Shown: positions 3,393-37,781 of the stretch, piece by piece
Position numbering within the stretch: the stretch's first letter is position 1
How the letters are laid out: every line of letters starts with the position of its first letter
Source: Microbacteriaceae bacterium
Lineage (GTDB): Bacteria; Actinomycetota; Actinomycetes; Actinomycetales; Microbacteriaceae
NCBI GenBank assembly: GCA_041303845.1
Contig: JBFYOK010000128.1
Location: forward strand, 1-39,876
DNA: 39,876 nt
Direction: 5' to 3'
Position numbers and translations under genes: made by a program
Notes under the pieces: generated by a model
Told to the model about the DNA's origin: nothing
The model's database searches: none
What the model saw: only the letters and a program-made list of their open reading frames with translations

Positions 3393-4298
3393 ATGGGTGA
3401 AGTTGTCGGAGCAGCACTGTTGGCGCACGTCCCAACAATCATGTTGCCCAAAGAGATTCGTTACGAACTCAACGAAGGCAAAGAGATTTCCCTCGTTCCG
3501 GGGCTTCACCGACTTCGCGAAGAGGTCATGGAAAAGCTCGACTACGACACCGTTGTCGTGCTCGACAGCCACTGGGCCACGACGGTCGAATTCGTCATCA
3601 CCTCGCATGATCACCGCGAGGGTTTCTACACCTCAGAAGAGTTGCCACGTGGCATGAGTGGCGTTCCCTATGCGTTCCGTGGCGATCGCGAGCTCGCAGA
3701 ATCCGTCGCGAAGTACGACGAGAAAAACGGCACTTGGATCACCCCCATCGACGACCCACACCTGCCGGTGTTCTACGCAACCATCAACCTTTGGGACTAC
3801 CTGGGTAAGGGACTCGACAAGCGTTGGGTCAGCATCTCTGTGTGCCAGACCGCAACCACGGAAGACTTCTTGCGTGCCGGCCGTGCACTCGGCGAAGCGA
3901 TTCGTGACAGCGACCGCAAGGTGCTGTTGCTCGCATCGGGCGCGCTGTCGCACACGTTCTACCCCTTGCGTGAATTGCGTTCACACGAGGCCAGCGATCC
4001 CAAGCACATCTTCTCACCAGAGGCCCGCGCCGCAGATGAAGAGCGCATCGAGTGGTTCAAGGCAGGCGATCACGCGCGCGTGCTCGAGACGATGCCGGAG
4101 TTCAAGAAGTACAAGCCCGAGGCGAACTTCTCGCACTACTTGACCATGATTGGCGCAATCGGCGAAGAGGCTGTGACGTCGAAGGGCGAGATGTACTCCG
4201 AGTACGAGAACTCGGTGGGCACCGGTCAGGTGCACATCTACTTCCCGAAGCCTGAAGGCGGCTTCCCTGCGCCGAAAGACGTGGTGCTCGCACGATGA
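3393..4298 (+). CDS. hpaD: 3,4-dihydroxyphenylacetate (homoprotocatechuate) 2,3-dioxygenase, LigB/class III extradiol type
   Basis: The ORF track starts at 3378. I prefer ATG 3393, preceded by GGAAGGA and lying just after the hpaE stop. DSHW, ASGALSH and SVGTGQVHIYFP match the HpaD/HpcB motifs DTHW, ASGSLSH and SSGTGQVN. Confidence 0.85.
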   Translation: MGEVVGAALLAHVPTIMLPKEIRYELNEGKEISLVPGLHRLREEVMEKLDYDTVVVLDSHWATTVEFVITSHDHREGFYTSEELPRGMSGVPYAFRGDRELAESVAKYDEKNGTWITPIDDPHLPVFYATINLWDYLGKGLDKRWVSISVCQTATTEDFLRAGRALGEAIRDSDRKVLLLASGALSHTFYPLRELRSHEASDPKHIFSPEARAADEERIEWFKAGDHARVLETMPEFKKYKPEANFSHYLTMIGAIGEEAVTSKGEMYSEYENSVGTGQVHIYFPKPEGGFPAPKDVVLAR

Positions 4299-10364: not shown

Positions 10365-10924
10365 TCCGGAGCGCCGACTGGAGTGTTCATCGCAGCCCAC
10401 GCCCACGCCGTTGCGTCTTCGGCAGGCGGCAGGGGGTCCATGTTGATCCACTCGCGCAGAATGCCGATGAATGAACCGGCCAGGCTCGCAGCCTGAACAT
10501 TGACGGGGACTGAACTGGCCGACGGAACGCCCGGTTGAGAGAGTCCATATGTCGCAAGCTGGATGATGCGGTCCGAAAGCCTGGCCACAATGAGGGGCGA
10601 CCCGGTCGAGCTCAACACTGTTTGGTACAGGGACGCGTTCTCCTGGACATGCGCGAAGTATCTCGTGATGAGGGCGCGAGGATCTGACTCGCCCATCGCC
10701 TCGATATCGGCCTCAAGCTGCGACTGTGCCTGCTCGGCAAATCGGTCCAATGCGTCCGCCAAGAGGGTCTCTTTGTCGGCATAGTGCTGGTAAAACGTGC
10801 TTCGATTCACTCCAGCGGCGTCAGCAATCATGGAGACGGACAGCGCCGGGAAGCCTTCGGTACGACACAGTTCGAGAAGGGCATCCTGCAGGCTTTGCTG
10901 TGTTCGCGCAATCCGGGGATCCAT
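10361..10924 (-). CDS. TetR/AcrR-family transcriptional regulator
   Basis: 187 aa. N-terminal HTH FPALSVSMIADAAGVNRSTFYQHYADKETLL. Divergent from the MMPL gene. Its stop overlaps the convergent membrane-protein stop (CTAG). Confidence 0.9.
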   Translation of the reverse strand: MDPRIARTQQSLQDALLELCRTEGFPALSVSMIADAAGVNRSTFYQHYADKETLLADALDRFAEQAQSQLEADIEAMGESDPRALITRYFAHVQENASLYQTVLSSTGSPLIVARLSDRIIQLATYGLSQPGVPSASSVPVNVQAASLAGSFIGILREWINMDPLPPAEDATAWAWAAMNTPVGAPD

Positions 10925-10977
10925 TCAATCGCTTTCTGTGAAAAAGGTGTTAAACACGTGGGCCAGATTGTTGTAAC

Positions 10978-11007
10978 CGACACCTGTCCTTTATCCTACA
11001 AGTGTCG
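10978..11007. promoter_or_regulatory. candidate TetR operator
   Basis: CGACACCTGT (10978..10987) and ACAAGTGTCG (10998..11007) form a 10-bp inverted repeat with one mismatch and a 10-nt spacer. It lies in the TetR/MMPL divergent intergenic region. Confidence 0.45.
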
Positions 11008-11071
11008 TTTTTCTCCTGCTGGCCATTCCGATGATGCAATTTCCGGCAAATCACTGTCAAAGGAATGCACC

Positions 11072-13789
11072 ATGGCCTCATTGCTCTACCGTCTCGGTCA
11101 ATTTTCTGCCCGCCGCGCGTGGCTCGTACTTGTCACGTGGCTTCTCGTTTTGGTTGCCGCAGCTGCTGCGGCCTTCGGACTCGGGGGAACGTTCTCGTCA
11201 TCGATGACGCTCAATGGGACCCCGTCTCAAAGCGTGATTGATCAACTCACGGAGTCATTTCCCGACGCGTCACGAGGAAGTGCGCAGTTTGTCTTTCACA
11301 AGTCAGACGGCACAGCTTTCACAGACGCAGAGCGCGAAGCCATCGACGTCGCGTTGACAAAGACGGCCGCCCTCGAGGGAGTGGATGGTGTCATCAACCC
11401 GTTCTCGGCTCAAGCGGCTAAGGACGAAAAAATCGCGGAGCTGGTTGACGCGCAACAAAAAATCGATGCGGCACCGAAGCAACTAGCCGACGGACAGGCT
11501 GCGATTGATTCAGGCTGGGCCAAGATTGCCGAGGCAGAAAATCAACTCGCGAGCGGCCAGGCCCAGATCGCCTCGGGACTCAAGCAAGTTGCAGACACGC
11601 GGCCATCCCTCGAATCGAATAAGTCGCAGCTTCAGTCGGCGATCGCTCAGGCAACCTCGAATGGCGCACCGCAGTCTCAGATTGACCAGCTCACGGGTCA
11701 GTTGCAGCAGGTCACGTCTGGGCTTGAACAGCTCGATGAGTCCGCTGCGGCACTCGCCAGTGCTCGGGTCGCGAGTCTCGCGGGTCAGGCAGAGATTGCG
11801 GACAACAAGCAGGCCTTGACGGATGCGCAGACGGAGCTCGACATCGCTCGCGCTGATCTTCCTGGTCAAATTCAAAAAGTCACATGGGGCCAGGAACTTC
11901 TCGCAGCCGCGGACAAGTACCGCGCTGTTTCCGTCGATTCGCAGACGGCACTCGGTGGCGTGTATTTCACCACACCCTTGTCGGACGTTTCCTCCGAGAC
12001 CAAAGACGCAGTCATCGACTCGTTGTCGAAGCTCGGTCTGACGAATGTCGAAGTTGAATTCTCTAAGGAACTCGCCACGTCACTCGGAAGCATTGTTGGT
12101 CCCGGCGAGATCGTCGGACTCGTCATCGCCGGAGTCGTGCTGTTCATCATGCTCAGCACTCTCATCGCCGCCGGTCTGCCCGTCCTCACAGCACTTTTAG
12201 GTGTTGCGATTAGTGCGCTGGGAGCTTTCGCACTCTCATCGGTCATCGAAATGAACTCAACGACGCCCACGCTGGCGGTCATGCTTGGACTTGCCGTGGG
12301 CATCGACTACTCCCTGTTCGTTCTCAATCGCCACCGCCGCCAACTCAAAGCTGGCGTGCCGGTGCAGGAATCGATTGCCTTGGCCAACGGAACGTCGGGA
12401 AGTGCCGTGCTCTTCGCCGGGCTGACCGTGATTATCGCGCTCCTAGCGCTCAACCTCACGGGCATCGGATTCCTTGGCCTTATGGGAAGCATCGGAGCCA
12501 TTGCCATTGCAATCTCGGTCATCGCGGCGTTGACATTTACGCCTGCCCTGATGAAGTTTGCAGGGCTAAAGGTGCTCAGTCGAAAGGAACGCGCCCGCCT
12601 CGACCTGGACAAGACAGGATCGATTCCCGTCGTGTCCGAAAAGGCCGCCACCAAGGCAAACCGCGAAGTTTGGGCGGCGAAGCGACCTGTTTGGGCACTC
12701 GTCATCACAGTTGGAGTGCTACTCGTAACCGCGATTCCCTTTGCCTCGATGCGTCTGGGCCTCTCCGACGGATTCTCTGAGCCCGTTGAATCGACCCAGT
12801 ATCGCGCCTATGAGCTCACCAGCGAAGGCTTTGGTGCGGGACAGAACGGCCAGATTACCGCGGCCGTCTCGTTTGATCAGCCTCTGGTCGGTGATGACGT
12901 GCTCGCCACGCAAGCCGACATCGCCTCAACGCTGATGGCTGTTGAGAATGTTGAGGCCGTCGTTGCCGGATCTCCATCTCCTGACTCAAAAACCCTGGTC
13001 TTCTCTGTTGTGCCGAGTGAAGGACCGGCGACGGTGTCTACGGAGCAGGTCGTCTACGACTTGCGCGCAAAATCTGGCGCAGTCGAAGCAACTACGGGCG
13101 GAGAACTCGGAATAACGGGCCTTGCCGCGGTCAACATTGACATTTCGAAGAAGCTCGCGGATGCACTTCCTCTTTATCTCGGAACCGTTCTCGCACTGAG
13201 TGTGCTCTTGATGATTCTCGTATTCCGGTCAATCGCCGTCCCCCTTGTTGCGAGTGCCGGGTTCTTGCTTTCGGTTTTGGCCGCACTCGGCGCCGTGACC
13301 GCGGTCTACCAATGGGGCTGGTTGGGCTCTGTATTCGGGGTGCACAACCCTGGACCAATCATGAACTTCTTGCCGACAATCCTGATCGGAGTTCTGTTCG
13401 GCTTGGCCATGGACTACCAGCTCTTTATCGCCACGGGAATCCGTGAGGCATACGTGCACGGCGATTCGGCGCGAGTCGCTATCACGCGGGGCGTTCACGC
13501 CGGGCGCGCGGTCGTCATCGCTGCCGCCATCATCATGATTGCTGTCTTCGGCAGCTTCGCCTTCGCCGAGTCAACAATGATTCGACCGATGGGATTTGGC
13601 CTCGCATTCGGAGTCCTTGTGGATGCCTTCCTCGTTCGACTTCTGCTTATTCCGGCAGTGCTTCGACTGCTGGGTAAGGGCGCCTGGTGGTTGCCATCCT
13701 GGCTAGATCGCGTCCTTCCGAATGTCGACGTGGAGGGATCCTCCCTCGAACGCGGGCAACGCAAGCAGGAGGTTGTGCTCGTCGCCTAG
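11072..13789 (+). CDS. MMPL/RND-superfamily membrane transporter with a long coiled-coil insertion in the first extracytoplasmic domain
   Basis: The real start is probably ATG 11072 (MASLLYRLGQFSARRAWLVLVTW...). The ORF-track start 10784 overlaps the TetR gene. There are two blocks of about 6 TM segments with typical MMPL motifs (GLAVGIDYSLFVLNRHR, GLAMDYQLFIATGIRE). A Q/A-rich heptad-like region spans roughly 11400..11900. Confidence 0.85.
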   Translation: MASLLYRLGQFSARRAWLVLVTWLLVLVAAAAAAFGLGGTFSSSMTLNGTPSQSVIDQLTESFPDASRGSAQFVFHKSDGTAFTDAEREAIDVALTKTAALEGVDGVINPFSAQAAKDEKIAELVDAQQKIDAAPKQLADGQAAIDSGWAKIAEAENQLASGQAQIASGLKQVADTRPSLESNKSQLQSAIAQATSNGAPQSQIDQLTGQLQQVTSGLEQLDESAAALASARVASLAGQAEIADNKQALTDAQTELDIARADLPGQIQKVTWGQELLAAADKYRAVSVDSQTALGGVYFTTPLSDVSSETKDAVIDSLSKLGLTNVEVEFSKELATSLGSIVGPGEIVGLVIAGVVLFIMLSTLIAAGLPVLTALLGVAISALGAFALSSVIEMNSTTPTLAVMLGLAVGIDYSLFVLNRHRRQLKAGVPVQESIALANGTSGSAVLFAGLTVIIALLALNLTGIGFLGLMGSIGAIAIAISVIAALTFTPALMKFAGLKVLSRKERARLDLDKTGSIPVVSEKAATKANREVWAAKRPVWALVITVGVLLVTAIPFASMRLGLSDGFSEPVESTQYRAYELTSEGFGAGQNGQITAAVSFDQPLVGDDVLATQADIASTLMAVENVEAVVAGSPSPDSKTLVFSVVPSEGPATVSTEQVVYDLRAKSGAVEATTGGELGITGLAAVNIDISKKLADALPLYLGTVLALSVLLMILVFRSIAVPLVASAGFLLSVLAALGAVTAVYQWGWLGSVFGVHNPGPIMNFLPTILIGVLFGLAMDYQLFIATGIREAYVHGDSARVAITRGVHAGRAVVIAAAIIMIAVFGSFAFAESTMIRPMGFGLAFGVLVDAFLVRLLLIPAVLRLLGKGAWWLPSWLDRVLPNVDVEGSSLERGQRKQEVVLVA

Positions 13790-29736: not shown

Positions 29737-29787
29737 ACGACCGAAGCGCCCGCCGACACACGCTAAGTGCGCGGGCGCTTCGGTCGT
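29737..29787. terminator. 17-bp perfect stem between the convergent adh and aguA genes
   Basis: ACGACCGAAGCGCCCGC (29737..29753) pairs with GCGGGCGCTTCGGTCGT (29771..29787) around a 17-nt loop. The right arm overlaps the last codons of aguA. Confidence 0.5.
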
Positions 29788-30845
29788 GCAACGGGCTGCT
29801 GTTGCGTGATGCAGTGGATGCCACCTCCGCGAGCAAAGATTGGCCTCGCATCCACGAGCACAATCTCACGGCCGGGATAAACGCGTTTGAGCACCCGCGC
29901 GGCTCGCGCATCGCCCGGGTCGTCGAAAGCGCAGAGAATGACCGCGCCATTGCACACGTAGTGGTTGATGTAGCTGTAGTCGTTCCAACTGTGGTCGTCC
30001 TCGAGCACATCGGGAGCGGGAACCGACACCACCTTTAGCTTTGGCGCGTTTGGCTTCGCTTTGGCGCGTTTGCGTGCGAGGGCCTTCAGCACTCGACGAG
30101 CTTCTTGACTGATCCAATAGTCAGGATGCTCCGCGTTGCGCTGATCGTGAAACAGAACGGTGTTGGCATCGGCAAAGCAGGCGACGATGTCGATGTGCCC
30201 ACGAGTGCCGAACTCTTCATAGTCCCGCGTGAGCCCTCGAGGGAACCACACAATCTCTCTGGATCCCAGGGTTCGGCCGAGTTCACCTTCGACGGTTTCG
30301 CGAGTCCAGCCTGGGTTTCGGTTGGGGTCGAGTTGAACGGTCTCCGTGATGAGCATTGTTGACTTGCCGTCAGTGTGGATGCCACCACCCTCGTTGATCA
30401 TGTCCGAACGGACAACAGGAACGCCTGACTTCTTGGCGACGAACTTTGCAATTGCGGCGTCCTTGTCATATTCCGACCAGGCTTGCGCGCCCCAACCGTT
30501 GAACACCCAGTCGACGGCGGCAATCGATCCGTCTTCCGTTGAACGCACAAACGTCGGACCGATGTCCCGCATCCACGCGTCATTCAATGGGGCGGTCACG
30601 ACATCCACACGGGAGTCGAGCCATTCGCGCGCAATCTTCACATCTGCTGGATCAACCACCATCGTGACGGGCTCAAATTTGATGATTGCGTTTGCGACGC
30701 TCGCCCACGCTGCGCGCGCCTCATCCTGTTCCTCTGCAGTATCGCCGAGGGTGTATCCGCTGGAAGGCCAGGCCATCCAGGTTCGCTCATGCTTCTCCCA
30801 CTCGGCGGGCATGCGCCAAGTTGGTGTGGAGGCTGAGCGAGGCAT
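29763..30845 (-). CDS. aguA: agmatine deiminase (PAD_porph / guanidino-group-modifying enzyme fold)
   Basis: RMPAEWEKHERTWMAWP at the N-terminus and GGGIHCITQQQP at the C-terminus are AguA hallmarks. I chose ATG 30845, one nt after the TAG of the upstream decarboxylase gene. The ORF track extends it to 30869. Confidence 0.85.
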   Translation of the reverse strand: MPRSASTPTWRMPAEWEKHERTWMAWPSSGYTLGDTAEEQDEARAAWASVANAIIKFEPVTMVVDPADVKIAREWLDSRVDVVTAPLNDAWMRDIGPTFVRSTEDGSIAAVDWVFNGWGAQAWSEYDKDAAIAKFVAKKSGVPVVRSDMINEGGGIHTDGKSTMLITETVQLDPNRNPGWTRETVEGELGRTLGSREIVWFPRGLTRDYEEFGTRGHIDIVACFADANTVLFHDQRNAEHPDYWISQEARRVLKALARKRAKAKPNAPKLKVVSVPAPDVLEDDHSWNDYSYINHYVCNGAVILCAFDDPGDARAARVLKRVYPGREIVLVDARPIFARGGGIHCITQQQPVARPKRPRT

Positions 30846-30846
30846 G

Positions 30847-32232
30847 CTACTTAGTTTCCATGGAATCAAGAATCTTTACTAGCGTTTCGAAATCCGTTTG
30901 TGGATTCACGATTGAGAAGCGCGTATTGGGCTCACCTTGATGAGAACTCGGAACGACAAAAGCGATGTCGGCATTGAGTAGGTTCGTCGACCAGCGCGCA
31001 TAGTCAGCTGCTGTCCAGCCATCCCGCGTGAAGACGACATTCGAGAGTTCAGGTTGTCGAACGAGTGCGAAGCCCGGCCTTCTCTCGATTTCGTCTGCTA
31101 TGCGACGGGCGAGCTGAACATTCCCCTCGACGGCCTCGCGGTAGGCACCCGCACCGTGCGTCGCCAGAGAGAACCACAGCGGAAGACCGCGGGGGCGCCG
31201 TGATAGGTGGTAGGCGTAGTCGCTGGGGTTCCAATCCCCAGTCTCCGTCAGCACGTCAAGGTATTCGGCGTGCTGCGTGTGGGCAGCTTTGCCGAGCAAC
31301 GGGTCACGATAGATCAGAGCGCAGGCATCGAACGGAGCAAAGAGCCACTTGTGCGGATCGACGATAAACGAATCGGCCAAATCAATGCCATCGAAGAGCG
31401 GCCGCGACGTTGGAGCCAGCATTCCGGCCAGTCCATATGCTCCATCAACGTGGAACCACGCCCCGTGTGCGTGAGCAACCTCGCCAATCGAGCGAAGGTG
31501 GTCGACGATGCCGAAGTTCGTGGTGCCACCGGTCGCGACGACGGCGAATACGCCATCCCAATCGGTGACGGCCGACTCCACCTCATCACCGTGCATCTTT
31601 CCCGTGGCGGTGATCGGCACGGGGATGATCTCGACGTCCATGACGCGAGCGGCCGCTTTGAGGCTCGAGTGCGCCTCGGCGCTACACGCGAAGGCCCAGC
31701 GGCGAGGCATGGGTTCACCGGCACGTTCGCGTGCGACACGTGCGGTGTGGCGGGCGGCGACCAGGGCGGACAGGTTGCCCAACGTCCCGCCCTGAACGAA
31801 TACTCCGCCTGCGCCCTCGGGCAGCCCTGCCTCGCGAGCGAGCCAGTGAAGAACCTCGTTCTCGGCGTAAACAGCACCCGCGCCTTCTGCCCATGATCCG
31901 CCGTAGATGCTTGATGCGGAAACAACCAGGTCGAAGAGAGTCGCCGCTTCGGTTGGAGCCGCTGGGATGAACGAGAGGAAACTCGGGTTGTCGACCGAAA
32001 TGCACGACGGCGCCAAGATGTCTTCAAAAAGTTTGAGTGCTGGAATTCCGCCGATGCCGTCTTCTGTCACCGTCGGCGGAACGAGAGCGGCCAACTCGGC
32101 GGGGCTCTTCGGAGCGTCCAGTGGGACCGGCTCATAATTCATGCGCCGACGCGCGTAATCAAAGACTTCCTCGCGCAGTTTCAAGGTGTCAACGTCGAGG
32201 GCGTGCATTCGCGCAGAAGGAAGATTTGTCAT
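30847..32232 (-). CDS. group II pyridoxal-phosphate-dependent amino-acid decarboxylase, substrate unknown
   Basis: The PLP-lysine motif IVDPHKWLFAPFD is present (Lys codon 31348..31350), with HVDGAYG upstream of it. The start is ATG 32232 (MTNLPSARM...) or GTG 32265. Confidence 0.8.
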   Translation of the reverse strand: MTNLPSARMHALDVDTLKLREEVFDYARRRMNYEPVPLDAPKSPAELAALVPPTVTEDGIGGIPALKLFEDILAPSCISVDNPSFLSFIPAAPTEAATLFDLVVSASSIYGGSWAEGAGAVYAENEVLHWLAREAGLPEGAGGVFVQGGTLGNLSALVAARHTARVARERAGEPMPRRWAFACSAEAHSSLKAAARVMDVEIIPVPITATGKMHGDEVESAVTDWDGVFAVVATGGTTNFGIVDHLRSIGEVAHAHGAWFHVDGAYGLAGMLAPTSRPLFDGIDLADSFIVDPHKWLFAPFDACALIYRDPLLGKAAHTQHAEYLDVLTETGDWNPSDYAYHLSRRPRGLPLWFSLATHGAGAYREAVEGNVQLARRIADEIERRPGFALVRQPELSNVVFTRDGWTAADYARWSTNLLNADIAFVVPSSHQGEPNTRFSIVNPQTDFETLVKILDSMETK

Positions 32233-32292
32233 GGCGAGAATCGAGCCTAGTCTCACACGCGACACGCCGAAAGTGACACTAGATGTTGTGGA

Positions 32293-32322
32293 ATGACATT
32301 CATGTGATTCCGGTTATATAGT
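32293..32322 (+). promoter_or_regulatory. candidate promoter for the 28-aa peptide ORF
   Basis: ATGACA (32293..32298), a 16-nt spacer, then TATATA (32315..32320; alternatively TATAGT at 32317..32322). Lies in an AT-rich patch. Confidence 0.4.
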
Positions 32323-32394
32323 GAGATTCCACCGCAAACGCGGAAGAGGCCTCAACGCCTCGACAAGATTTGACTGAAGATAAAGGAGGCGACC

Positions 32395-32481
32395 ATGGAG
32401 TTCGAAGGTAATGACACCGTAGGTGGTTACGCCGTGCCCGTCGACCCGATGGACATGCTGCAGTGCGACAGCTGCCAGTAG
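32395..32481 (+). CDS. unannotated small ORF encoding a 28-aa strongly acidic peptide with a C-terminal CxxC
   Basis: Too short for the ORF track. AAAGGAGG (32382..32389) lies 5 nt before ATG 32395. It translates to MEFEGNDTVGGYAVPVDPMDMLQCDSCQ, with 6 acidic and 0 basic residues. An in-frame stop at 32371..32373 excludes a longer N-terminus. Third-position GC is high in the distal two-thirds. An intrinsic terminator follows. Confidence 0.6.
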   Translation: MEFEGNDTVGGYAVPVDPMDMLQCDSCQ

Positions 32482-32513
32482 GCAACAGACCACACTCGTT
32501 CTGACGAGTATTG

Positions 32514-32549
32514 AAAACCCCGACTTTTCTGTCGGGGTTTTCTGCTTTT
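32514..32549 (+). terminator. rho-independent terminator after the peptide ORF, immediately before the kinase gene
   Basis: AAAACCCCGAC (32514..32524), loop TTTTCT, GTCGGGGTTTT (32531..32541), then CTGCTTTT. It is preceded by a smaller hairpin, ACTCGT/ACGAGT (32494..32509). Confidence 0.8.
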
Positions 32550-32558
32550 CGATAGCCT

Positions 32559-34376
32559 GTGTGCATGTTTGAACGGGCAGTTGCGAGCGTGCGATCTGAT
32601 ATGAATCAGGTCGCGGGCCCGCAAGCGCTGTCTTTCGTTGTCGTTTTGCCGGGGCTCATTTTGCTCACGCTCGGTACCGCGTTCGCGGACACCCAAAATC
32701 TGGACGACTACAACGAGGCATGGATTGTCGTTGCCGTGCAGGCTTTCGTTGTCGCCCTCATCGTTTTTTCAATTTTTGGGTTGCTCGCTCGATTTCTTCG
32801 CGGGCAGATTCGAGTTGCAGCCGTCTTCACTCTTTATGCCGTGACCGAAACGTCGCGAATGCTGGTCGTCGAAAGCCAAGCGCTGAATCGGGGGTTGATT
32901 CAAGAAGCGGACTGGCCCGCGCAATTGTTGACGGCAGCCCTCATTGGACCGACCATTTATGGGGTTGCCGCCCTGGCAACTAACCAGACCTTTGAATTTC
33001 GGTCAACCGTGGCGGACCTCACCGCTCGCACGGTCCTCTTGCAAACCACACTGGCGCGCACAGAAATCGATGCAAATATTGCGCGGCATGAAATCCTCAA
33101 GACAGCGAAGGATTCGATTCGCCACGCCCTCAAGATATCGATGGGCGTCAGCGGTTCGGTTGTGCCGACTGCCGCCACCATTCGTTCACTTCTTGACGTA
33201 TCGGATGACGTCGTGCGGCCACTGAGCCACAAGCTGATGTATAGCCAAGGTAGGTTCTCCGGGATTGCTCCCGAACCCGTTCGCACCAAATTGCATTTTT
33301 GGGAAGTCATCAACCTTGCCACAACGACGCGTCCCTTCAGACCCGCCGCAACGGTCTTGGTTGGCGGGATGCTTGCCATTGGCGCAGCGGTCACACAAGC
33401 CCCATACGGCCTTGGCGTGGCAGCGCTCGTCATTTTTTTGTTAGCCAGTTATGCGCTCATCGCTGTTGCTCGACGGTTTCTTTCTGCGCCACTGCGTCGA
33501 ATCCGTTTACCCACGCGGTTCGTCGTTCTGGAGGCCATATACATTGCGTTGTGTTTTCCTGCCTCGCTCGCAGTGGGGCTTCTCAATCGGCTACCTGAAG
33601 GTCTGATGGTGCCGTTCTTGCTCTACGCAACGGGCATCGGTTCCCTCGTACTTTGGTACCTCGCAACCATGTCGGGTGTGCGCAAGGGTTTTGCTGCTGT
33701 GATCGGGCAAGTGCGCGAGGTCAACCGTCAACTCGAGTGGGCAGTCGCACGTGTGAACGCACGGCTTTGGACAGACCAGAAGGAACTCTCGCGCATCCTG
33801 CACAACGAAGTTCAGGGGGTGCTCGTCTCAACCGCGTTCAAAATGCAACGCGACCTTGACGCGGGCAAAGATGTTTCCATCGATCCAATCGCGGTTCGTC
33901 AAGCAGTACTCAACTCCCTGAACAGCCCGACTGCCCAGTCGACGCCCACCCTCGAACGCGCGCTTGCTGTTGAGCAAGAGCGCTGGTCCGGCGTGTTGGA
34001 CATCAGTCTTGACATAGATGCCGGCACTTTCGACATTGTGAATCAAGATCGCGACGCGCGACGTGTCATCATCGACCTCGTTCATGAATTCATGGTCAAC
34101 GCCGTCAAGCACGGTAAGGCACGGAGCGCACAAATGTGGATGCGACCCACATCTCGCGGCACCATGGATATTTCGCTTTATAACGACGGATTACCGATGC
34201 CCGCTGACCGCAAGCCAGGACTCGGTGCGGAGCTCGCTTTTTCGGTTTCGGTTTCATTGCGATTGCCACCTCACCTCAGCGGGGTTGAACTTCGTATCGA
34301 GATTCCGTGTGACGGCACAGACACCTACGTGGGCGTCAGTTCCGCACCTGTGTTCGCGACATCGACTCATCGCTAG
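32559..34376 (+). CDS. membrane-bound sensor histidine kinase (HisKA_3-like H-box plus HATPase), no adjacent response regulator
   Basis: 605 aa. There are two blocks of about four hydrophobic segments. H-box-like ELSRILHNEVQGVL (His codon 33801..33803), N-box DLVHEFMVNAVKHGKA and G-box GLGAE. The start is uncertain (GTG 32559, ATG 32565 or ATG 32601). Confidence 0.7.
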   Translation: MCMFERAVASVRSDMNQVAGPQALSFVVVLPGLILLTLGTAFADTQNLDDYNEAWIVVAVQAFVVALIVFSIFGLLARFLRGQIRVAAVFTLYAVTETSRMLVVESQALNRGLIQEADWPAQLLTAALIGPTIYGVAALATNQTFEFRSTVADLTARTVLLQTTLARTEIDANIARHEILKTAKDSIRHALKISMGVSGSVVPTAATIRSLLDVSDDVVRPLSHKLMYSQGRFSGIAPEPVRTKLHFWEVINLATTTRPFRPAATVLVGGMLAIGAAVTQAPYGLGVAALVIFLLASYALIAVARRFLSAPLRRIRLPTRFVVLEAIYIALCFPASLAVGLLNRLPEGLMVPFLLYATGIGSLVLWYLATMSGVRKGFAAVIGQVREVNRQLEWAVARVNARLWTDQKELSRILHNEVQGVLVSTAFKMQRDLDAGKDVSIDPIAVRQAVLNSLNSPTAQSTPTLERALAVEQERWSGVLDISLDIDAGTFDIVNQDRDARRVIIDLVHEFMVNAVKHGKARSAQMWMRPTSRGTMDISLYNDGLPMPADRKPGLGAELAFSVSVSLRLPPHLSGVELRIEIPCDGTDTYVGVSSAPVFATSTHR

Positions 34377-34386
34377 GCTTGCTCGC

Positions 34387-34833
34387 ATGGCTGTGAACCC
34401 CGCAATCGAAGGACGCACACTGCCGCCGACTGATCCCTATTTGGTTGGCCGCGAAAAGATTCGCGAGTTTGCTCGCGCGGTGATGTCGACTAACCCCATC
34501 AATTTCGAGGTGGATGCTGCGCGCGCGGCTGGCCACGATGACGTTGTTGCTCCGCCAACGTTCCCGATTGTCGTCCAAGAACGCACGCTCGCACAGCTTT
34601 TGGCACTTCCAGACACGGGGATCGACTTCAGCCGCATCGTTCACGGCGATCAACGATTCACGTTCTCTCGACCTATTGTCGCGGGCGACGAGCTGACGGC
34701 TCAGCTCACGGTTGCGTCCGTCAAGAGTTTGGGCGGTCACAGCATGGTGACTGCGGTCTCAGAAATTACTGATGAGTCGGGGGCGCATGTCGTCACAGCA
34801 ACGTCGACTCTTGTGGTGCGAGGGGATGAGTGA
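34387..34833 (+). CDS. MaoC-like (R)-specific hydratase/dehydratase subunit, N-terminal-type (HadA-like)
   Basis: Start at ATG 34387 (MAVNPAIEGRTLPP...). The ORF-track start 34063 overlaps the kinase gene. Hot-dog fold pattern, and ATGA-coupled to the next gene. Confidence 0.8.
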   Translation: MAVNPAIEGRTLPPTDPYLVGREKIREFARAVMSTNPINFEVDAARAAGHDDVVAPPTFPIVVQERTLAQLLALPDTGIDFSRIVHGDQRFTFSRPIVAGDELTAQLTVASVKSLGGHSMVTAVSEITDESGAHVVTATSTLVVRGDE

Positions 34834-35255
34834 TGACACCGTCGTTTGATTCCGTTTCCGTCGGTGACGAGATTCCGACCGTTGACTACCACCTGACTCG
34901 AGACACGCTTGTGCGATATGCCGGGGCGTCGGGAGACTTCAACCCGATTCACTATCGTGACGACGTGGCAACCTCCGTCGGACTACCCGGCGTCTTGGCG
35001 CACGGCATGTTGACGATGGGAGTTGCCGTCCAAGCCACGACGAATTGGGCCGGCGATCCGGCACGCGTCGTCGACTATCAGACGCGCTTCACACGCCCCG
35101 TACTCGTTGATCCGACATCCGGTGCGGACATCTCGGTCACGGGCAAAGTAGCTGCCGTTGACACCGAAACCGGTGAAGTTCGTGTCGATCTCACGGTCAC
35201 CTTCAACGGAGAAACAGTGCTGGGCAAAGCCCAAGCGCGCGTTCGCCTGACCTAG
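34830..35255 (+). CDS. MaoC-family dehydratase, catalytic subunit type (HadB-like)
   Basis: 141 aa with the hydratase motif SGDFNPIHY. Confidence 0.85.
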   Translation: MMTPSFDSVSVGDEIPTVDYHLTRDTLVRYAGASGDFNPIHYRDDVATSVGLPGVLAHGMLTMGVAVQATTNWAGDPARVVDYQTRFTRPVLVDPTSGADISVTGKVAAVDTETGEVRVDLTVTFNGETVLGKAQARVRLT

Positions 35256-35284
35256 GCCTCAACGGAAACGACGAGGCCCTGTCC

Positions 35285-36370
35285 ATGCGATTCGCAGATC
35301 TGACCACGCTCGGCGTCGGTGGAGACATCACCGACTTTGTCGAGGCACATTCGAACGCCGAGATTTTGCATGCGGTCACGAGCGCGTGGTCCAGCGGGTT
35401 GCCGATTCTCGCCCTAGGCGGGGGCTCTAACCTTCTGGTCGGCGACGATGGTTTCGATGGGCGAGTCATCGCCATTCGAACGCGCGGCATCGATGTGAAC
35501 CATGACGGTCGATTGGTGCGCGTGCGCGTTGCCGCGGGCGAGTCATGGGATGACGTTGTGGCGTGGTCACTCGAGCAAGGGTTCGCCGGCTTCGAGGCCC
35601 TGTCGGGCATCCCTGGGTTAGTCGGTGCCGCACCCATTCAGAATATTGGCGCCTATGGGCAGGAGGTCAGCGCACTTATTTCAGGTGTGGACGTGCTTGA
35701 CCTGAACGCGGGTGAGCCACGACACATGGGTGCAAAAGAACTCGAGTTCGCCTATCGTGACTCCGTTTTCAAGCAGGGTCTCGATGCAATCGTGCTGAGC
35801 GTCGACTTCGAATTAGTGGATGCGCGTGCCACCGGACTTTCAGAACCCATCGTGTTCCCGCAGCTCGCGACCGCACTCGGCGTCGAACTCGGTGCACGAG
35901 TTCCGCTCGCACACGCTCGCGATGCCGTTCTTGGTCTTCGACGTTCCAAAGGAATGGTGCTCGACCCGAATGACTCGGACACGCGGAGTGCGGGCTCGTT
36001 TTTCGTGAACCCGATTGTGACCGAGCGCTTCGCACGGGCGTTGCCGGCGGATGCTCCGCGCTATCCGGTTGGCGAAGAAGCTCGCGATCGTGTGCTCGAG
36101 ATTGGCGCGGAAGTGCCCCCGCTCGCCGAACCGGGCCTTGTCAAGCTGAGCGCTGCGTGGCTGATTGAGAACGCGGGCATCCCGCGTGGGTTTTCGCTGC
36201 CGGGTTCGCGGGCGGCAGTGTCGAGTAAACACACGCTGGCGCTCACCAACCTCGGCGGGGCAACCTCAGAAGAGGTTGCTGGACTCGCTCGATACGTGCG
36301 CTCGCTGGTGCAGTCGCAGTTTGGCGTTCTGTTGCAACCAGAGCCCGTCTGCATTGGCGTTGAGCTCTAA
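35285..36370 (+). CDS. murB: UDP-N-acetylenolpyruvoylglucosamine reductase
   Basis: 361 aa. N-terminal FAD-binding region LTTLGVGGDITDFVEA ... LGGGSNLLVGDDGFDG, plus AAPIQNIGAYGQEV and SAGSFFVNP motifs. Confidence 0.9.
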   Translation: MRFADLTTLGVGGDITDFVEAHSNAEILHAVTSAWSSGLPILALGGGSNLLVGDDGFDGRVIAIRTRGIDVNHDGRLVRVRVAAGESWDDVVAWSLEQGFAGFEALSGIPGLVGAAPIQNIGAYGQEVSALISGVDVLDLNAGEPRHMGAKELEFAYRDSVFKQGLDAIVLSVDFELVDARATGLSEPIVFPQLATALGVELGARVPLAHARDAVLGLRRSKGMVLDPNDSDTRSAGSFFVNPIVTERFARALPADAPRYPVGEEARDRVLEIGAEVPPLAEPGLVKLSAAWLIENAGIPRGFSLPGSRAAVSSKHTLALTNLGGATSEEVAGLARYVRSLVQSQFGVLLQPEPVCIGVEL

Positions 36371-36377
36371 CTCTGCC

Positions 36378-37583
36378 TTAGCGCGTGCCGAAGAGTTTCT
36401 GCAGCCGGTGCATTCCTTCGAGAAGAGGTTCGTCTCCGAGTGCATAGCTGAAGCGCAGGAATCCGCTTGGACCAAAGGCCTCACCCGGTACGGCAGCGAC
36501 TTCTGCTTGTTCGAGAATGAGGTCAGCGAGTTCGAGTGACGAGCTCGGCGTCACTCCGCCCCACGTCTTGCCAAGCAATTCGCTGACATCGGGGTAAACG
36601 TAGAACGCACCCGTTGGCGTCGGGGTGTTGAAACCGGGGATCTTGTTGAGCTCCCCGACAATCAGCTTGCGTCGACGGTCGAATGCTCCGCGCATTTCAC
36701 CAACGCACTCTTGCGGACCCGTTAGGGCGGCGAGAGCCGCACGCTGCGAGATGTTGGACACGTTTGACGACAGGTGTGACTGCAGGTTGGCCGCGGCCTT
36801 GATGGCATCGAGTGGTCCCACCATCCATCCCAGACGCCACCCGGTCATGGCGTAGGTCTTGGCAACACCATTGACGAGGATTGTGCGGTCGGCTAGAGCG
36901 GGAACGGCGTCGACAATTGAGACTGCGGTGACACCGTCATAGGTCAGGTTCTGGTAAATCTCATCGCTGATGACCCAAAGGCCGTGCTTTTCCGCCCACT
37001 CGCCGATGGCTTTGGTTTGCTCCGGTGAATACACCGAGCCGGTCGGGTTAGACGGCGAAACGAAAAGGAGAAGCTTTGTGCGCTCCGTGCGAGCGGCCTC
37101 AAGTTGGTCAACGGTAACGAGGTAGTTCTGGTCGGCACCCGCGAAGACATCGACCTGGACGCCACCCGCAAGCTTGATTGCTTCGGGGTAGGTCGTCCAG
37201 TAGGGCGTGGGAACGAGCACTTCGTCGCCCGGATCGAGCAACGTTGCGAATGCTTGGTAGACGGCTTGCTTTCCGCCGTTTGTCACGACCACTTGCGACG
37301 GGTCGACGGCGAGACCGCTGTCGCGCAGGGTCTTCGCTGCAATGGCCTCGCGCAGCTCGGGCAATCCGGCGGCCGGGGTGTACCGGTGGTTCTTGGGATC
37401 CTTGACTGCCGCGAGAGCCGCCTCAACAATGTGTGCCGGGGTGGGGAAGTCGGGCTCGCCGGCGGCGTAGCTGATGACGGGTCGTCCGGCGGCTTGCAGG
37501 GACTTGGCTTTCGCATCCACTTTCAGCGTCGCTGATTCAACGATGGATGCGATGCGGGTTGAGATTCGCTTCAATTCAGGCAC
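36378..37583 (-). CDS. pyridoxal-phosphate-dependent aminotransferase class I (aspartate aminotransferase-like)
   Basis: 401 aa with a GTG start. Motifs [22 protein letters not shown] and [17 protein letters not shown] (PLP Lys). Confidence 0.9.
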
Positions 37584-37708: not shown

Positions 37709-37781
37709 AGGGTGGTGGCTCAATTGGTAGAGCAGCGGTCTCCAAAACCGCAGGTTGCAGGTTCGAGTCCTGTCCGCCCTG
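37709..37781 (+). tRNA. tRNA-Trp (anticodon CCA)
   Basis: Hand-folded cloverleaf. Acceptor AGGGTGG/CCGCCCT, D-arm GCTC-AATTGGTA-GAGC, anticodon arm GCGGT-CTCCAAA-ACCGC, T-arm GCAGG-TTCGAGT-CCTGT and discriminator G. It sits in the conserved position upstream of secE. Confidence 0.9.

Follow-up and report, generated by a model that had tools for sequence, protein, structure and literature searches.

The window analyzed here, a stretch of 39,876 nucleotides from a Microbacteriaceae bacterium (assembly GCA_041303845.1, contig JBFYOK010000128.1), carries a 28-codon gene whose product, MEFEGNDTVGGYAVPVDPMDMLQCDSCQ, is identified by profile comparison as a detached homolog of the C-terminal Cys-x-x-Cys (CxxC) tail of NrdA, the alpha subunit of class I ribonucleotide reductase (RNR), the enzyme that supplies the precursors of DNA. 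We call it a homolog of the tail and not the tail itself because it is encoded by a separate open reading frame (ORF) with its own Shine-Dalgarno sequence, promoter, and terminator. In the reading that we favor, and regard as probably correct, the peptide is the C-terminal redox tail of class I NrdA in detached form and acts in trans as a shuttle that re-reduces the RNR active site.

The homology becomes visible when the C termini of RNR alpha proteins are compared with the peptide family. An artificial fusion of an alpha C terminus and the peptide was used as search query, and the best 120 alpha homologs were scored. No Cys tail is present in 101 of them, including proteins named in NCBI as belonging to Microbacterium, Amnibacterium, Galbitalea, Rhodoglobus, and Microbacteriaceae; the tail-less alphas encoded beside the peptide ORF (see below) end in ...RRGFGGL or ...RKGFGFGG, without any cysteine. 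A CxxC tail terminates 19 of the 120, and in 17 of these it takes the form ...CP(V/I)DP(Q/M)ER(L)(Q/E)C(D/E)SCQ, for example ...VDGAACPVDPQERLQCDSCQ or ...ACPVDPMERLQCESCQ; in the other two, P0349 and P0412, the motif is reached via a scrambled, frameshift-like linker. When the free-peptide profile is aligned to the fused-tail profile with hhalign, the match has a probability of 98.4% and an E value of 6e-15 over 24 columns, with both profiles anchored at their C termini. The single peptide had found no match in Pfam, NCBIfam, or PDB sequences, nor did the fused-tail profile find one in the PDB, and an earlier note on this DNA, made from its letters alone, had assigned the peptide to no described family; the profile alignment replaces that statement with homology to the NrdA tail. 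Fused and free tails also differ in a regular way. In the fused tails a further Cys, the third, is invariant (A-C-P-V-D-P), and DP-x is followed by E-R. In the free peptides that Cys gives way to Val, the residue two places before it is an invariant Tyr, and M-D stands in place of x-E. As judged from the alignment, these changes are systematic and accompany detachment of the tail.

Gene order gives the complementary picture. At loci where the peptide gene is not linked to hadA, its neighbor at more than 80 Microbacteriaceae loci, it lies between the genes for a class I RNR alpha and a beta subunit. The adjoining alpha carries an ATP-cone and the NLCTE and TTYYL motifs, and its best match is 5IM3, the NrdA of Pseudomonas aeruginosa (654 bits); the adjoining beta is matched best by 1SYY, the Chlamydia trachomatis R2c protein (class Ic), and carries Phe where the radical Tyr would be. 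Nine tail-less loci were examined, and in every one of them the peptide ORF sits between nrdA and nrdB. At L129, L252, L253, L046, L119, and L123 (fetched loci are numbered with an L), the stop codon of the tail-less nrdA overlaps the ATG of the peptide ORF, as TGATG or ATGA, and nrdB follows; at L037 and L047 the peptide starts a few nucleotides 3′ of the nrdA stop, and the stretch fetched for L045 holds the peptide gene and nrdB only. At L128, where nrdA has a fused tail, nrdB follows directly. Fused versus free tails, together with this complementary gene order, therefore mark the family as the product of a gene fission that split the redox tail from RNR alpha. The peptide ORFs of L129, L252 (Galbitalea), and L253 (Microbacteriaceae) encode MMNEEYYVPVDPMDELQCDSCQ, ...TEYEVPVDPMDDLQCESCQ, and ...LEYVVPVDPMDELQCESCQ, respectively, and the overlap of stop and start codons in such operon copies suggests that translation of nrdA and of the peptide is coupled. 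The idea that the peptide had merely been relocated from nrdAB in Microbacteriaceae was considered and is ruled out by the nrdA-coupled copies in L252 and L253; the window gene is therefore a stand-alone paralog and not the sole copy. L027 and L047 both come from one metagenome-assembled genome, so that nrdA-coupled and hadA-linked copies can share a Microbacteriaceae genome.

Two observations on the nrdA genes themselves may be added. At L128 (3960-6537) and L129 (4014-6597), nrdA is called as two overlapping ORFs of about 700 aa and about 180-200 aa, which looks like a frameshift error, the contig names suggesting long-read data; many of the short "alpha" matches in the protein collection are probably nrdA fragments of this kind. 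The fused-tail nrdA of L128 is preceded (3700-3960) by a long, structured-looking 5′ leader and not by the NrdR-box promoter of the tail-less nrdA genes. A B12 riboswitch is reported to control the nrdABS operon of Streptomyces, and the L128 leader might be a candidate for the same kind of element.

The peptide gene is genuine and codes for protein, with strong purifying selection acting on its product. The close relatives compared were loci encoding homologs of the protein of about 600-605 aa that is encoded downstream in the window. The peptide is 100% identical across relatives whose downstream protein, a membrane protein, is 57-68% identical to that of the window, and the five distinct nucleotide versions of the gene differ at nine sites, all nine synonymous (eight third-position changes and one CTG/TTG exchange). 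Among 114 distinct family members, entropy at codon positions 1, 2, and 3 is 0.30, 0.22, and 0.93; all of them share the final Gln and the stop codon, even though both lie outside the requirements of the search pattern, and directly past the stop codon conservation collapses, with an entropy of about 1.7 at all three positions. A GGAGG-type Shine-Dalgarno sequence stands ahead of nearly every family copy, and the window holds only two AAGGAGG heptamers, one of them at the peptide gene; the promoter of the gene is the sole promoter-like match within 31500-33500. The proposal of the earlier note, a real small gene with its own promoter, strong Shine-Dalgarno sequence, and terminator, is thus borne out, every one of these features lying where it had been placed, and so is its description of a peptide with six acidic residues, zero basic residues, and no signal sequence; the frame is conserved in relatives, a point that the note had named as a check. 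An Rfam scan in and near the gene yielded nothing that reached threshold, so the region does not match a known noncoding RNA family, the alternative that the note had named. With a permissive threshold the rnk leader appeared at 26 bits, against a gathering threshold of 55 and on the terminator hairpin only, and was rejected.

The family is large and its C terminus nearly fixed. A degenerate DNA pattern for GGYxxPxDPMDxxxCxxC matched at least 120 species-representative genomes, nearly all of them Microbacteriaceae (Leifsonia, Salinibacterium, Rhodoglobus, Microcella, Pontimonas, Aurantimicrobium, Cryobacterium, and others); the GGY in this pattern excluded the nrdA-coupled copies of L252 and L253. 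The family motif is Y-x-V-P-x-D-P-M-D-x-L-Q-C-[DE]-S-C-Q-stop. An exhaustive profile search returned 414 representatives at 50% identity (E ≤ 1e-3), and a word-indexed search 2016 clusters at 90% identity (E ≤ 1). The best 150 of the 414 representatives are all short (≤151 aa, nearly all below 125 aa), and in nearly all of them the motif is C-terminal and reads C-[DE]-S-C-Q. Both Cys residues and the Gln are invariant in 38 aligned family members, and all 114 distinct genomic copies terminate in C-x-x-C-Q-stop, in keeping with the weight that the earlier note gave to the C-terminal CxxC, the functionally central part of the peptide.

That note had also called the gene unannotated. This stands insofar as neither Pfam nor NCBIfam has a model that matches the peptide, and it fails in that exact-sequence look-up finds identical or similar peptides in NCBI, JGI, and UniRef, many of them misnamed: NCBI and UniRef label many peptides of 26-32 aa "ribonucleotide-diphosphate reductase subunit beta" (e.g., QDZ16959.1, WP_097059241.1, and MTA81436.1). 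A beta subunit is a ferritin-like di-metal protein of about 320-400 aa (PF00268), and the peptide has 28 aa; the true beta subunits are encoded by separate genes for 330-aa proteins downstream in L123, L129, L252, and L253. Having no sequence similarity to beta subunits, these peptides carry a name that is, by this comparison, a misnomer.

Upstream of the peptide gene, conservation across the family far exceeds what a promoter alone would need. The NrdR box is a 16-bp, partially palindromic element with conserved positions C4, A6, A8, T9, T11, and G13, of which C4 is reported to be critical for binding by the NrdR of Streptomyces coelicolor (PMC13584703), and the optimal spacer between two boxes is 15-17 bp for the S. 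coelicolor protein (PMC12051234). Box 1 ahead of the peptide gene (Table 1) is the sole such site in the window, where 0.1 would be expected by chance, and 101 of 117 distinct upstream regions contain a box that matches at six of six positions. The spacer between boxes 1 and 2 measures 17 bp and is constant in 99 of the 101 loci; in the promoter, TATATAGTG hardly varies among family members. The same module is found in the nrdA promoters of L123, L037, L047, and L129, with GACACGCC first, then box 1, a spacer of 16-17 bp, and a box 2 that includes TATATAGTG; the conserved motif CGACACGCCGAAA has its counterpart there in GACGACACGCC. The peptide gene therefore carries an nrdA-type promoter, and it is probably co-repressed by NrdR. 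Within the spacer, 82 of 116 distinct stand-alone upstream regions hold a palindrome, GGAATGACA-N4-TGTCATTCC, always with N4 (consensus GGAATGACA/TGTcATTCc), which is absent from the nrdA promoters examined. Conservation is unusual for NrdR spacers, and the palindrome suggests that a second regulator besides NrdR acts at the stand-alone promoters.

Collectively, these data show the route by which the tail came loose. In the ancestral state the tail (...CP-V-DP-x-E-R-L-Q-C-D-S-C-Q-stop) is fused to NrdA. The clade concerned has an alpha like that of P. aeruginosa and a beta like the class Ic protein of C. trachomatis; in Microbacteriaceae and relatives, NrdA ends without a cysteine and the tail is translated from its own gene of 22-35 codons. 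One copy lies between nrdA and nrdB, and a second, that of the window, forms its own transcription unit before hadA-hadB-murB. In the model that we propose for the mechanism, the reduced Cys-x-x-Cys of the free peptide would enter the NrdA active site after each turnover and reduce the active-site disulfide, and the oxidized peptide would be re-reduced by a thioredoxin- or glutaredoxin-type system. The conserved segment Tyr-x-Val-Pro-x-Asp-Pro-Met-Asp may dock the peptide on NrdA. Expression of nrdAB and of the peptide would probably be repressed together by NrdR at high dATP, and the stand-alone copy would raise, or separately regulate, the supply of the peptide.

Several points weigh against this model. 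A tethered tail has a large advantage in effective concentration, and that the free peptide binds to and turns over on NrdA is something we infer. The window copy is unlinked to RNR genes, none being present anywhere in the window, and the tail-less NrdA is known from relatives and not from this organism. As a stand-alone paralog the peptide could have diverged in function; its promoter differs from those of nrdA in having an extra, conserved palindromic operator. Where fused tails have their third Cys, free peptides have Val, and they show an invariant Tyr instead, so the chemistry or the docking may differ from that of fused tails. Box 2 lacks the critical C4, which leaves NrdR control at the level of a candidate. 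Lastly, the phage copies described below, which come without RNR genes, fit the boosting of a host enzyme and its inhibition equally well.

At least 120 IMG/VR viral contigs (L130-L249) contain the same motif in ORFs of 20-40 codons, and in 117 of the 120 fetched viral loci the stretch contains the peptide and no RNR gene. Two cultured phages with Microbacteriaceae hosts carry it as well: Clavibacter phage CMP1, whose peptide is MGDGEYTVPQDPMDEFQCDSCQ (L250, 2487-2555; about 36705-36773 in the record), and Pontimonas phage phiPsal1, with MSDPFDAIDRVDGIDVPIDPMDLLQCTSCQ (L251, 2477-2569). Neither copy is annotated, and in both phages the start codon overlaps the stop codon of the holin gene. Extra paralogs in Leifsonia (L058, L060, L124, L062, and L011) lie in prophage-like or conjugative contexts, next to genes for a tape-measure protein, a phage tail collar, a metallophosphoesterase-like protein, a TrwC relaxase, and a resolvase.

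Such copies bear on the main rival explanation, in which the peptide mimics the tail and serves as a regulator or inhibitor: it would occupy the tail-docking site or the active-site entrance of NrdA, or titrate the redoxin, and so tune or block RNR. Yeast Sml1, which reportedly interferes with the R1 C-terminal tail, would be comparable. This explanation is relevant to the stand-alone and phage copies, and it draws on the presence of two or more paralogs per genome with an extra operator on the stand-alone one, on the lack of RNR genes near the peptide in 117 of 120 phage contigs, and on the position of the CMP1 and phiPsal1 copies at the end of the lysis cassette. It leaves unaccounted for that the cognate NrdA has no Cys tail of its own and so needs a Cys pair supplied in trans, and that Cys-x-x-Cys-Gln-stop is invariant, phage copies included, as expected for redox chemistry and unneeded for occupancy; the strong Shine-Dalgarno sequence and the nrdA-like promoter, moreover, argue for production together with the enzyme. 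We therefore consider a regulatory or inhibitory tail mimic unlikely, if still the rival to be taken most seriously, above all for the stand-alone and phage copies. A role as metal or cofactor helper is less probable still. An acidic peptide with a CxxC could deliver or buffer Mn/Fe or another thiophilic metal as the cofactor of the class Ic-type NrdB is assembled, and its gene does stand immediately 5′ of nrdB in some loci, the best structural relative of this NrdB being the Mn/Fe protein of C. trachomatis; yet the homology is to the alpha tail, whose role is electron delivery, the fused versions are on alpha and not on beta, and the peptide has two Cys only and no His.

The region around the coding sequence adds structure to the transcript (Table 1). 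The two hairpins in the 5′ untranslated region (UTR) show compensatory changes among five distinct relatives, with GAGGC/GCCTC becoming GAGAC/GTCTC. Past the stop codon, a hairpin is present at the position of 3′-UTR hairpin 1 in five of five relatives, with a different sequence in each, and the stem of the terminator-like hairpin is maintained through compensatory changes in close relatives, as judged from an alignment fold. A strong hairpin 3′ of the stop is found in 101 of 116 family copies (median −23 kcal/mol). The possible starts of the next gene are at 32559 (GTG), 32565 (ATG), and 32601 (ATG). With a terminator between ORF and next gene, and hairpin 1 beginning so soon after the stop codon, the peptide might be a regulatory leader ORF, as the earlier note had offered as an alternative, in which translation of a run rich in Met, Cys, and Asp codons controls terminator formation and read-through into the next gene. 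We give this very little credence. The amino acid sequence is conserved before differing downstream genes (hadA, the membrane protein gene, nrdB, and phage genes), the pattern over codon positions points to selection on the protein, the alignment fold contains only independent hairpins and no conserved alternative (antiterminator) pairing, and a separate, leaderless promoter seems to serve the next gene. This last inference comes from GATAGCCTG, which stands 6-7 nt ahead of the called ATG or GTG in L001, L002, L005, and L007, so that the membrane protein gene is probably transcribed from a promoter of its own.

Table 1. Features of the peptide gene and its surroundings, in window coordinates
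Feature	Position	Strand	Remarks
Conserved upstream motif CGACACGCCGAAA	32260..32272	+	in most of 120 upstream regions
NrdR-box-like element 1 (box 1), ACACTAGATGTTGTGG	32276..32291	+	6/6 highly conserved positions
22-bp palindrome GGAATGACA-N4-TGTGATTCC	32290..32311	+	fills inter-box spacer; overlaps −35
Sigma-70-like promoter, ATGACA (−35), 18 nt, TATAGT (−10)	32293..32322	+	10/12 matches
NrdR-box-like element 2 (box 2), TCCGGTTATATAGTGA	32309..32324	+	4/6 positions; overlaps −10; C4 and A6 missing
5′-UTR hairpin CCGC-AAAC-GCGG	32332-32343	+	present in five distinct relatives
5′-UTR hairpin GAGGC-N6-GCCTC	32346-32361	+	present in five distinct relatives
Shine-Dalgarno sequence AAGGAGG	32383..32389	+	5 nt 5′ of ATG
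Peptide coding sequence, MEFEGNDTVGGYAVPVDPMDMLQCDSCQ, 28 codons; stand-alone homolog of NrdA C-terminal CxxC tail	32395..32481	+	start ATG 32395, stop TAG 32479-32481; coding signature, family size, hhalign
3′-UTR hairpin 1, ACTCGT-TCTG-ACGAGT	32494..32509	+	folded; begins 13 nt after stop codon
Intrinsic-terminator-like hairpin and T-rich tail, TGCTTTTCGA	32513..32552	+	GC-rich 12-pair stem, 32513-32542
Conserved TAGCCT (−10-like), 32553-32558	32553..32567	+	6 nt before ATG 32565; not part of the peptide unit
Multi-helix membrane protein, about 603 aa	32565..34376	+	lineage-specific insert between peptide gene and hadA
hadA-hadB-murB	34387..36370	+	conserved downstream neighbors of the stand-alone peptide gene in Microbacteriaceae

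The neighborhood of the gene bears on the remaining explanation, that of a precursor of a ribosomally synthesized and posttranslationally modified peptide (RiPP), a peptide pheromone, or a small modulator of the downstream protein, which the earlier note had taken for a kinase. The layout invites it: a short acidic peptide with a strong Shine-Dalgarno sequence, then a hairpin, then a membrane protein whose C-terminal part weakly resembles DesK and EL346. The membrane protein has 11 homologs among 5.8 billion proteins and no domain match in Pfam; its AlphaFold model has a pLDDT (predicted local distance difference test) of 66, and a fold search returned no significant match, only a weak, partial likeness to the histidine kinases DesK and EL346 that is confined to the C-terminal 190 aa or so. 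Its identity as a kinase is, from this modeling, unproven. It stands between the peptide gene and hadA only in the clade of the window and in L016, L025, and L108, whose versions are 28-31% identical relatives, whereas in more than 80 other Microbacteriaceae loci hadA comes directly after the peptide gene and is followed by hadB and murB. Linkage of the peptide to the "kinase" is thus incidental. Across the neighborhoods examined, the peptide gene has no maturase, transporter, or response regulator as a partner, and its upstream neighbors are not conserved across loci; downstream are hadA-hadB-murB, the membrane protein gene, or nrdB. The peptide itself has no signal sequence, recurs between nrdA and nrdB and in phages, and keeps an invariant C terminus over hundreds of species, unlike the variable cores of RiPPs. 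With the linkage incidental and conserved partners wanting, the RiPP, pheromone, kinase-modulator, and attenuator readings therefore lose their basis, and the first three of these, largely refuted by the distribution of the peptide, are to our minds the least probable of all the explanations considered.

Genera differ in the distance between the peptide gene and hadA, which can be as short as about 0.1 kb or exceed 3 kb (L024, L035, L048, L066, L106, L112, L122, and others). Insertions therefore seem to have entered this junction repeatedly, the membrane protein gene of the window being one of them. In other actinobacteria, rpmG, which encodes ribosomal protein L33, precedes hadA. The peptide was accordingly considered as an L33 replacement and the idea was rejected, L33 similarity being found in no locus and the peptide being acidic. 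On the other side of the gene, the window encodes an agmatine deiminase (PAD_porph) and a pyridoxal phosphate (PLP)-dependent decarboxylase, divergently oriented upstream (29763-32265, minus strand). The same pair is located downstream on the same strand, replacing hadA, in L010, L043, L072, L085, L093, L096, L099, and L120; its linkage to the peptide is recurrent but rearranged. Farther away in the window are an ORF for an MMPL-family transporter of 1033 aa (10688-13789) and one tRNA gene (37709-37781).

C-terminal cysteine pairs are an established part of class I alpha subunits, being C754 and C759 in Escherichia coli NrdA (CX4C) and a CX2C in eukaryotic R1. The C terminus of most class I RNR alphas is a CXXC whose task is to re-reduce the active site, redoxins in turn reducing the CXXC (bioRxiv 10.1101/2022.04.23.489257; PMC5704485). 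The window peptide, which ends in ...AVPVDPMDMLQCDSCQ, is like the fused tails of the same NrdA clade, which end in ...CPVDPQERLQCDSCQ, in having its Cys pair at the extreme C terminus, in an acidic and probably disordered context, and in its presumed role of passing electrons from a redoxin to the active site. It is unlike them in being a separate 28-aa product, unlinked from nrdAB and with its own promoter and terminator, in belonging to a family with Val for the third Cys and an invariant Tyr, and in the existence of several free paralogs per genome and of copies borne by phages. A precedent for the separation is the split class II RNR of P. aeruginosa, NrdJa/NrdJb (PMC4520616; discussed in bioRxiv 10.1101/2022.04.23.489257). 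There, one gene encodes the catalytic barrel and the gene next to it the C-terminal Cys part, and the two products assemble in trans. NrdJb, roughly 230 aa in size, has a folded structure that includes IscU-like and zinc-finger domains, belongs to a class II enzyme, and is not known as relocated or carried by phages, whereas the peptides have 25-35 aa and are probably disordered.

C-terminal cysteines are also known to act between subunits, as in yeast Rnr1, where those of the CX2C work in trans. Inter-subunit electron transfer was demonstrated for a class II enzyme, Stackebrandtia nassauensis NrdJd, the C-terminal Cys pair of whose cysteine-rich domain (CRD) reduces the active site on a different polypeptide, as the free peptide would (PMC5704485). 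In contrast to the peptide, the NrdJd and Rnr1 tails stay covalently within the neighboring alpha of the oligomer. NrdH redoxin and the glutaredoxin fused to NrdB in Facklamia ignava (PMC6187632) resemble the peptide as small thiol proteins that serve RNR turnover and are co-regulated with nrd genes. These, however, are thioredoxin-fold reductants of the tail, whereas the peptide would be the tail itself and has no thioredoxin fold. The searchable literature held nothing relevant on a detached class I tail peptide or on a small ORF between nrdA and nrdB; what it describes are tails within alpha, the split class II NrdJa/NrdJb, and redoxins fused to NrdB.

Descriptions of class I RNR have the redox tail as part of alpha in an alpha2-beta2 enzyme. 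In the case presented here, this essential and intrinsically disordered segment exists family-wide as a micro-gene of its own, one that was then duplicated, moved, and picked up by phages. The gene is also a clear case of a functional gene below the minimum length of most gene callers, and a systematic database misnomer that hides the identity of its product would be corrected. In a wider form of our proposal, which we put forward tentatively and at somewhat less than an even chance, a diffusible peptide of 22-35 residues would serve a class I RNR widespread in actinobacteria as an obligatory "third subunit" that shuttles electrons, and it would be tradable because it is free: genomes would keep extra, separately regulated copies, and hundreds of phages and some conjugative elements would carry their own copy to control host dNTP synthesis without encoding an RNR. 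If the peptide acts in trans, it would represent a new kind of phage auxiliary gene, and RNR re-reduction could be tested with a synthetic peptide that is titrated, labeled, or mutated apart from the enzyme. A published phylogenetic survey left class II enzymes without C-terminal cysteines unexplained; a tail supplied in trans would, if true, explain RNR alphas that seemingly have no C-terminal cysteines.

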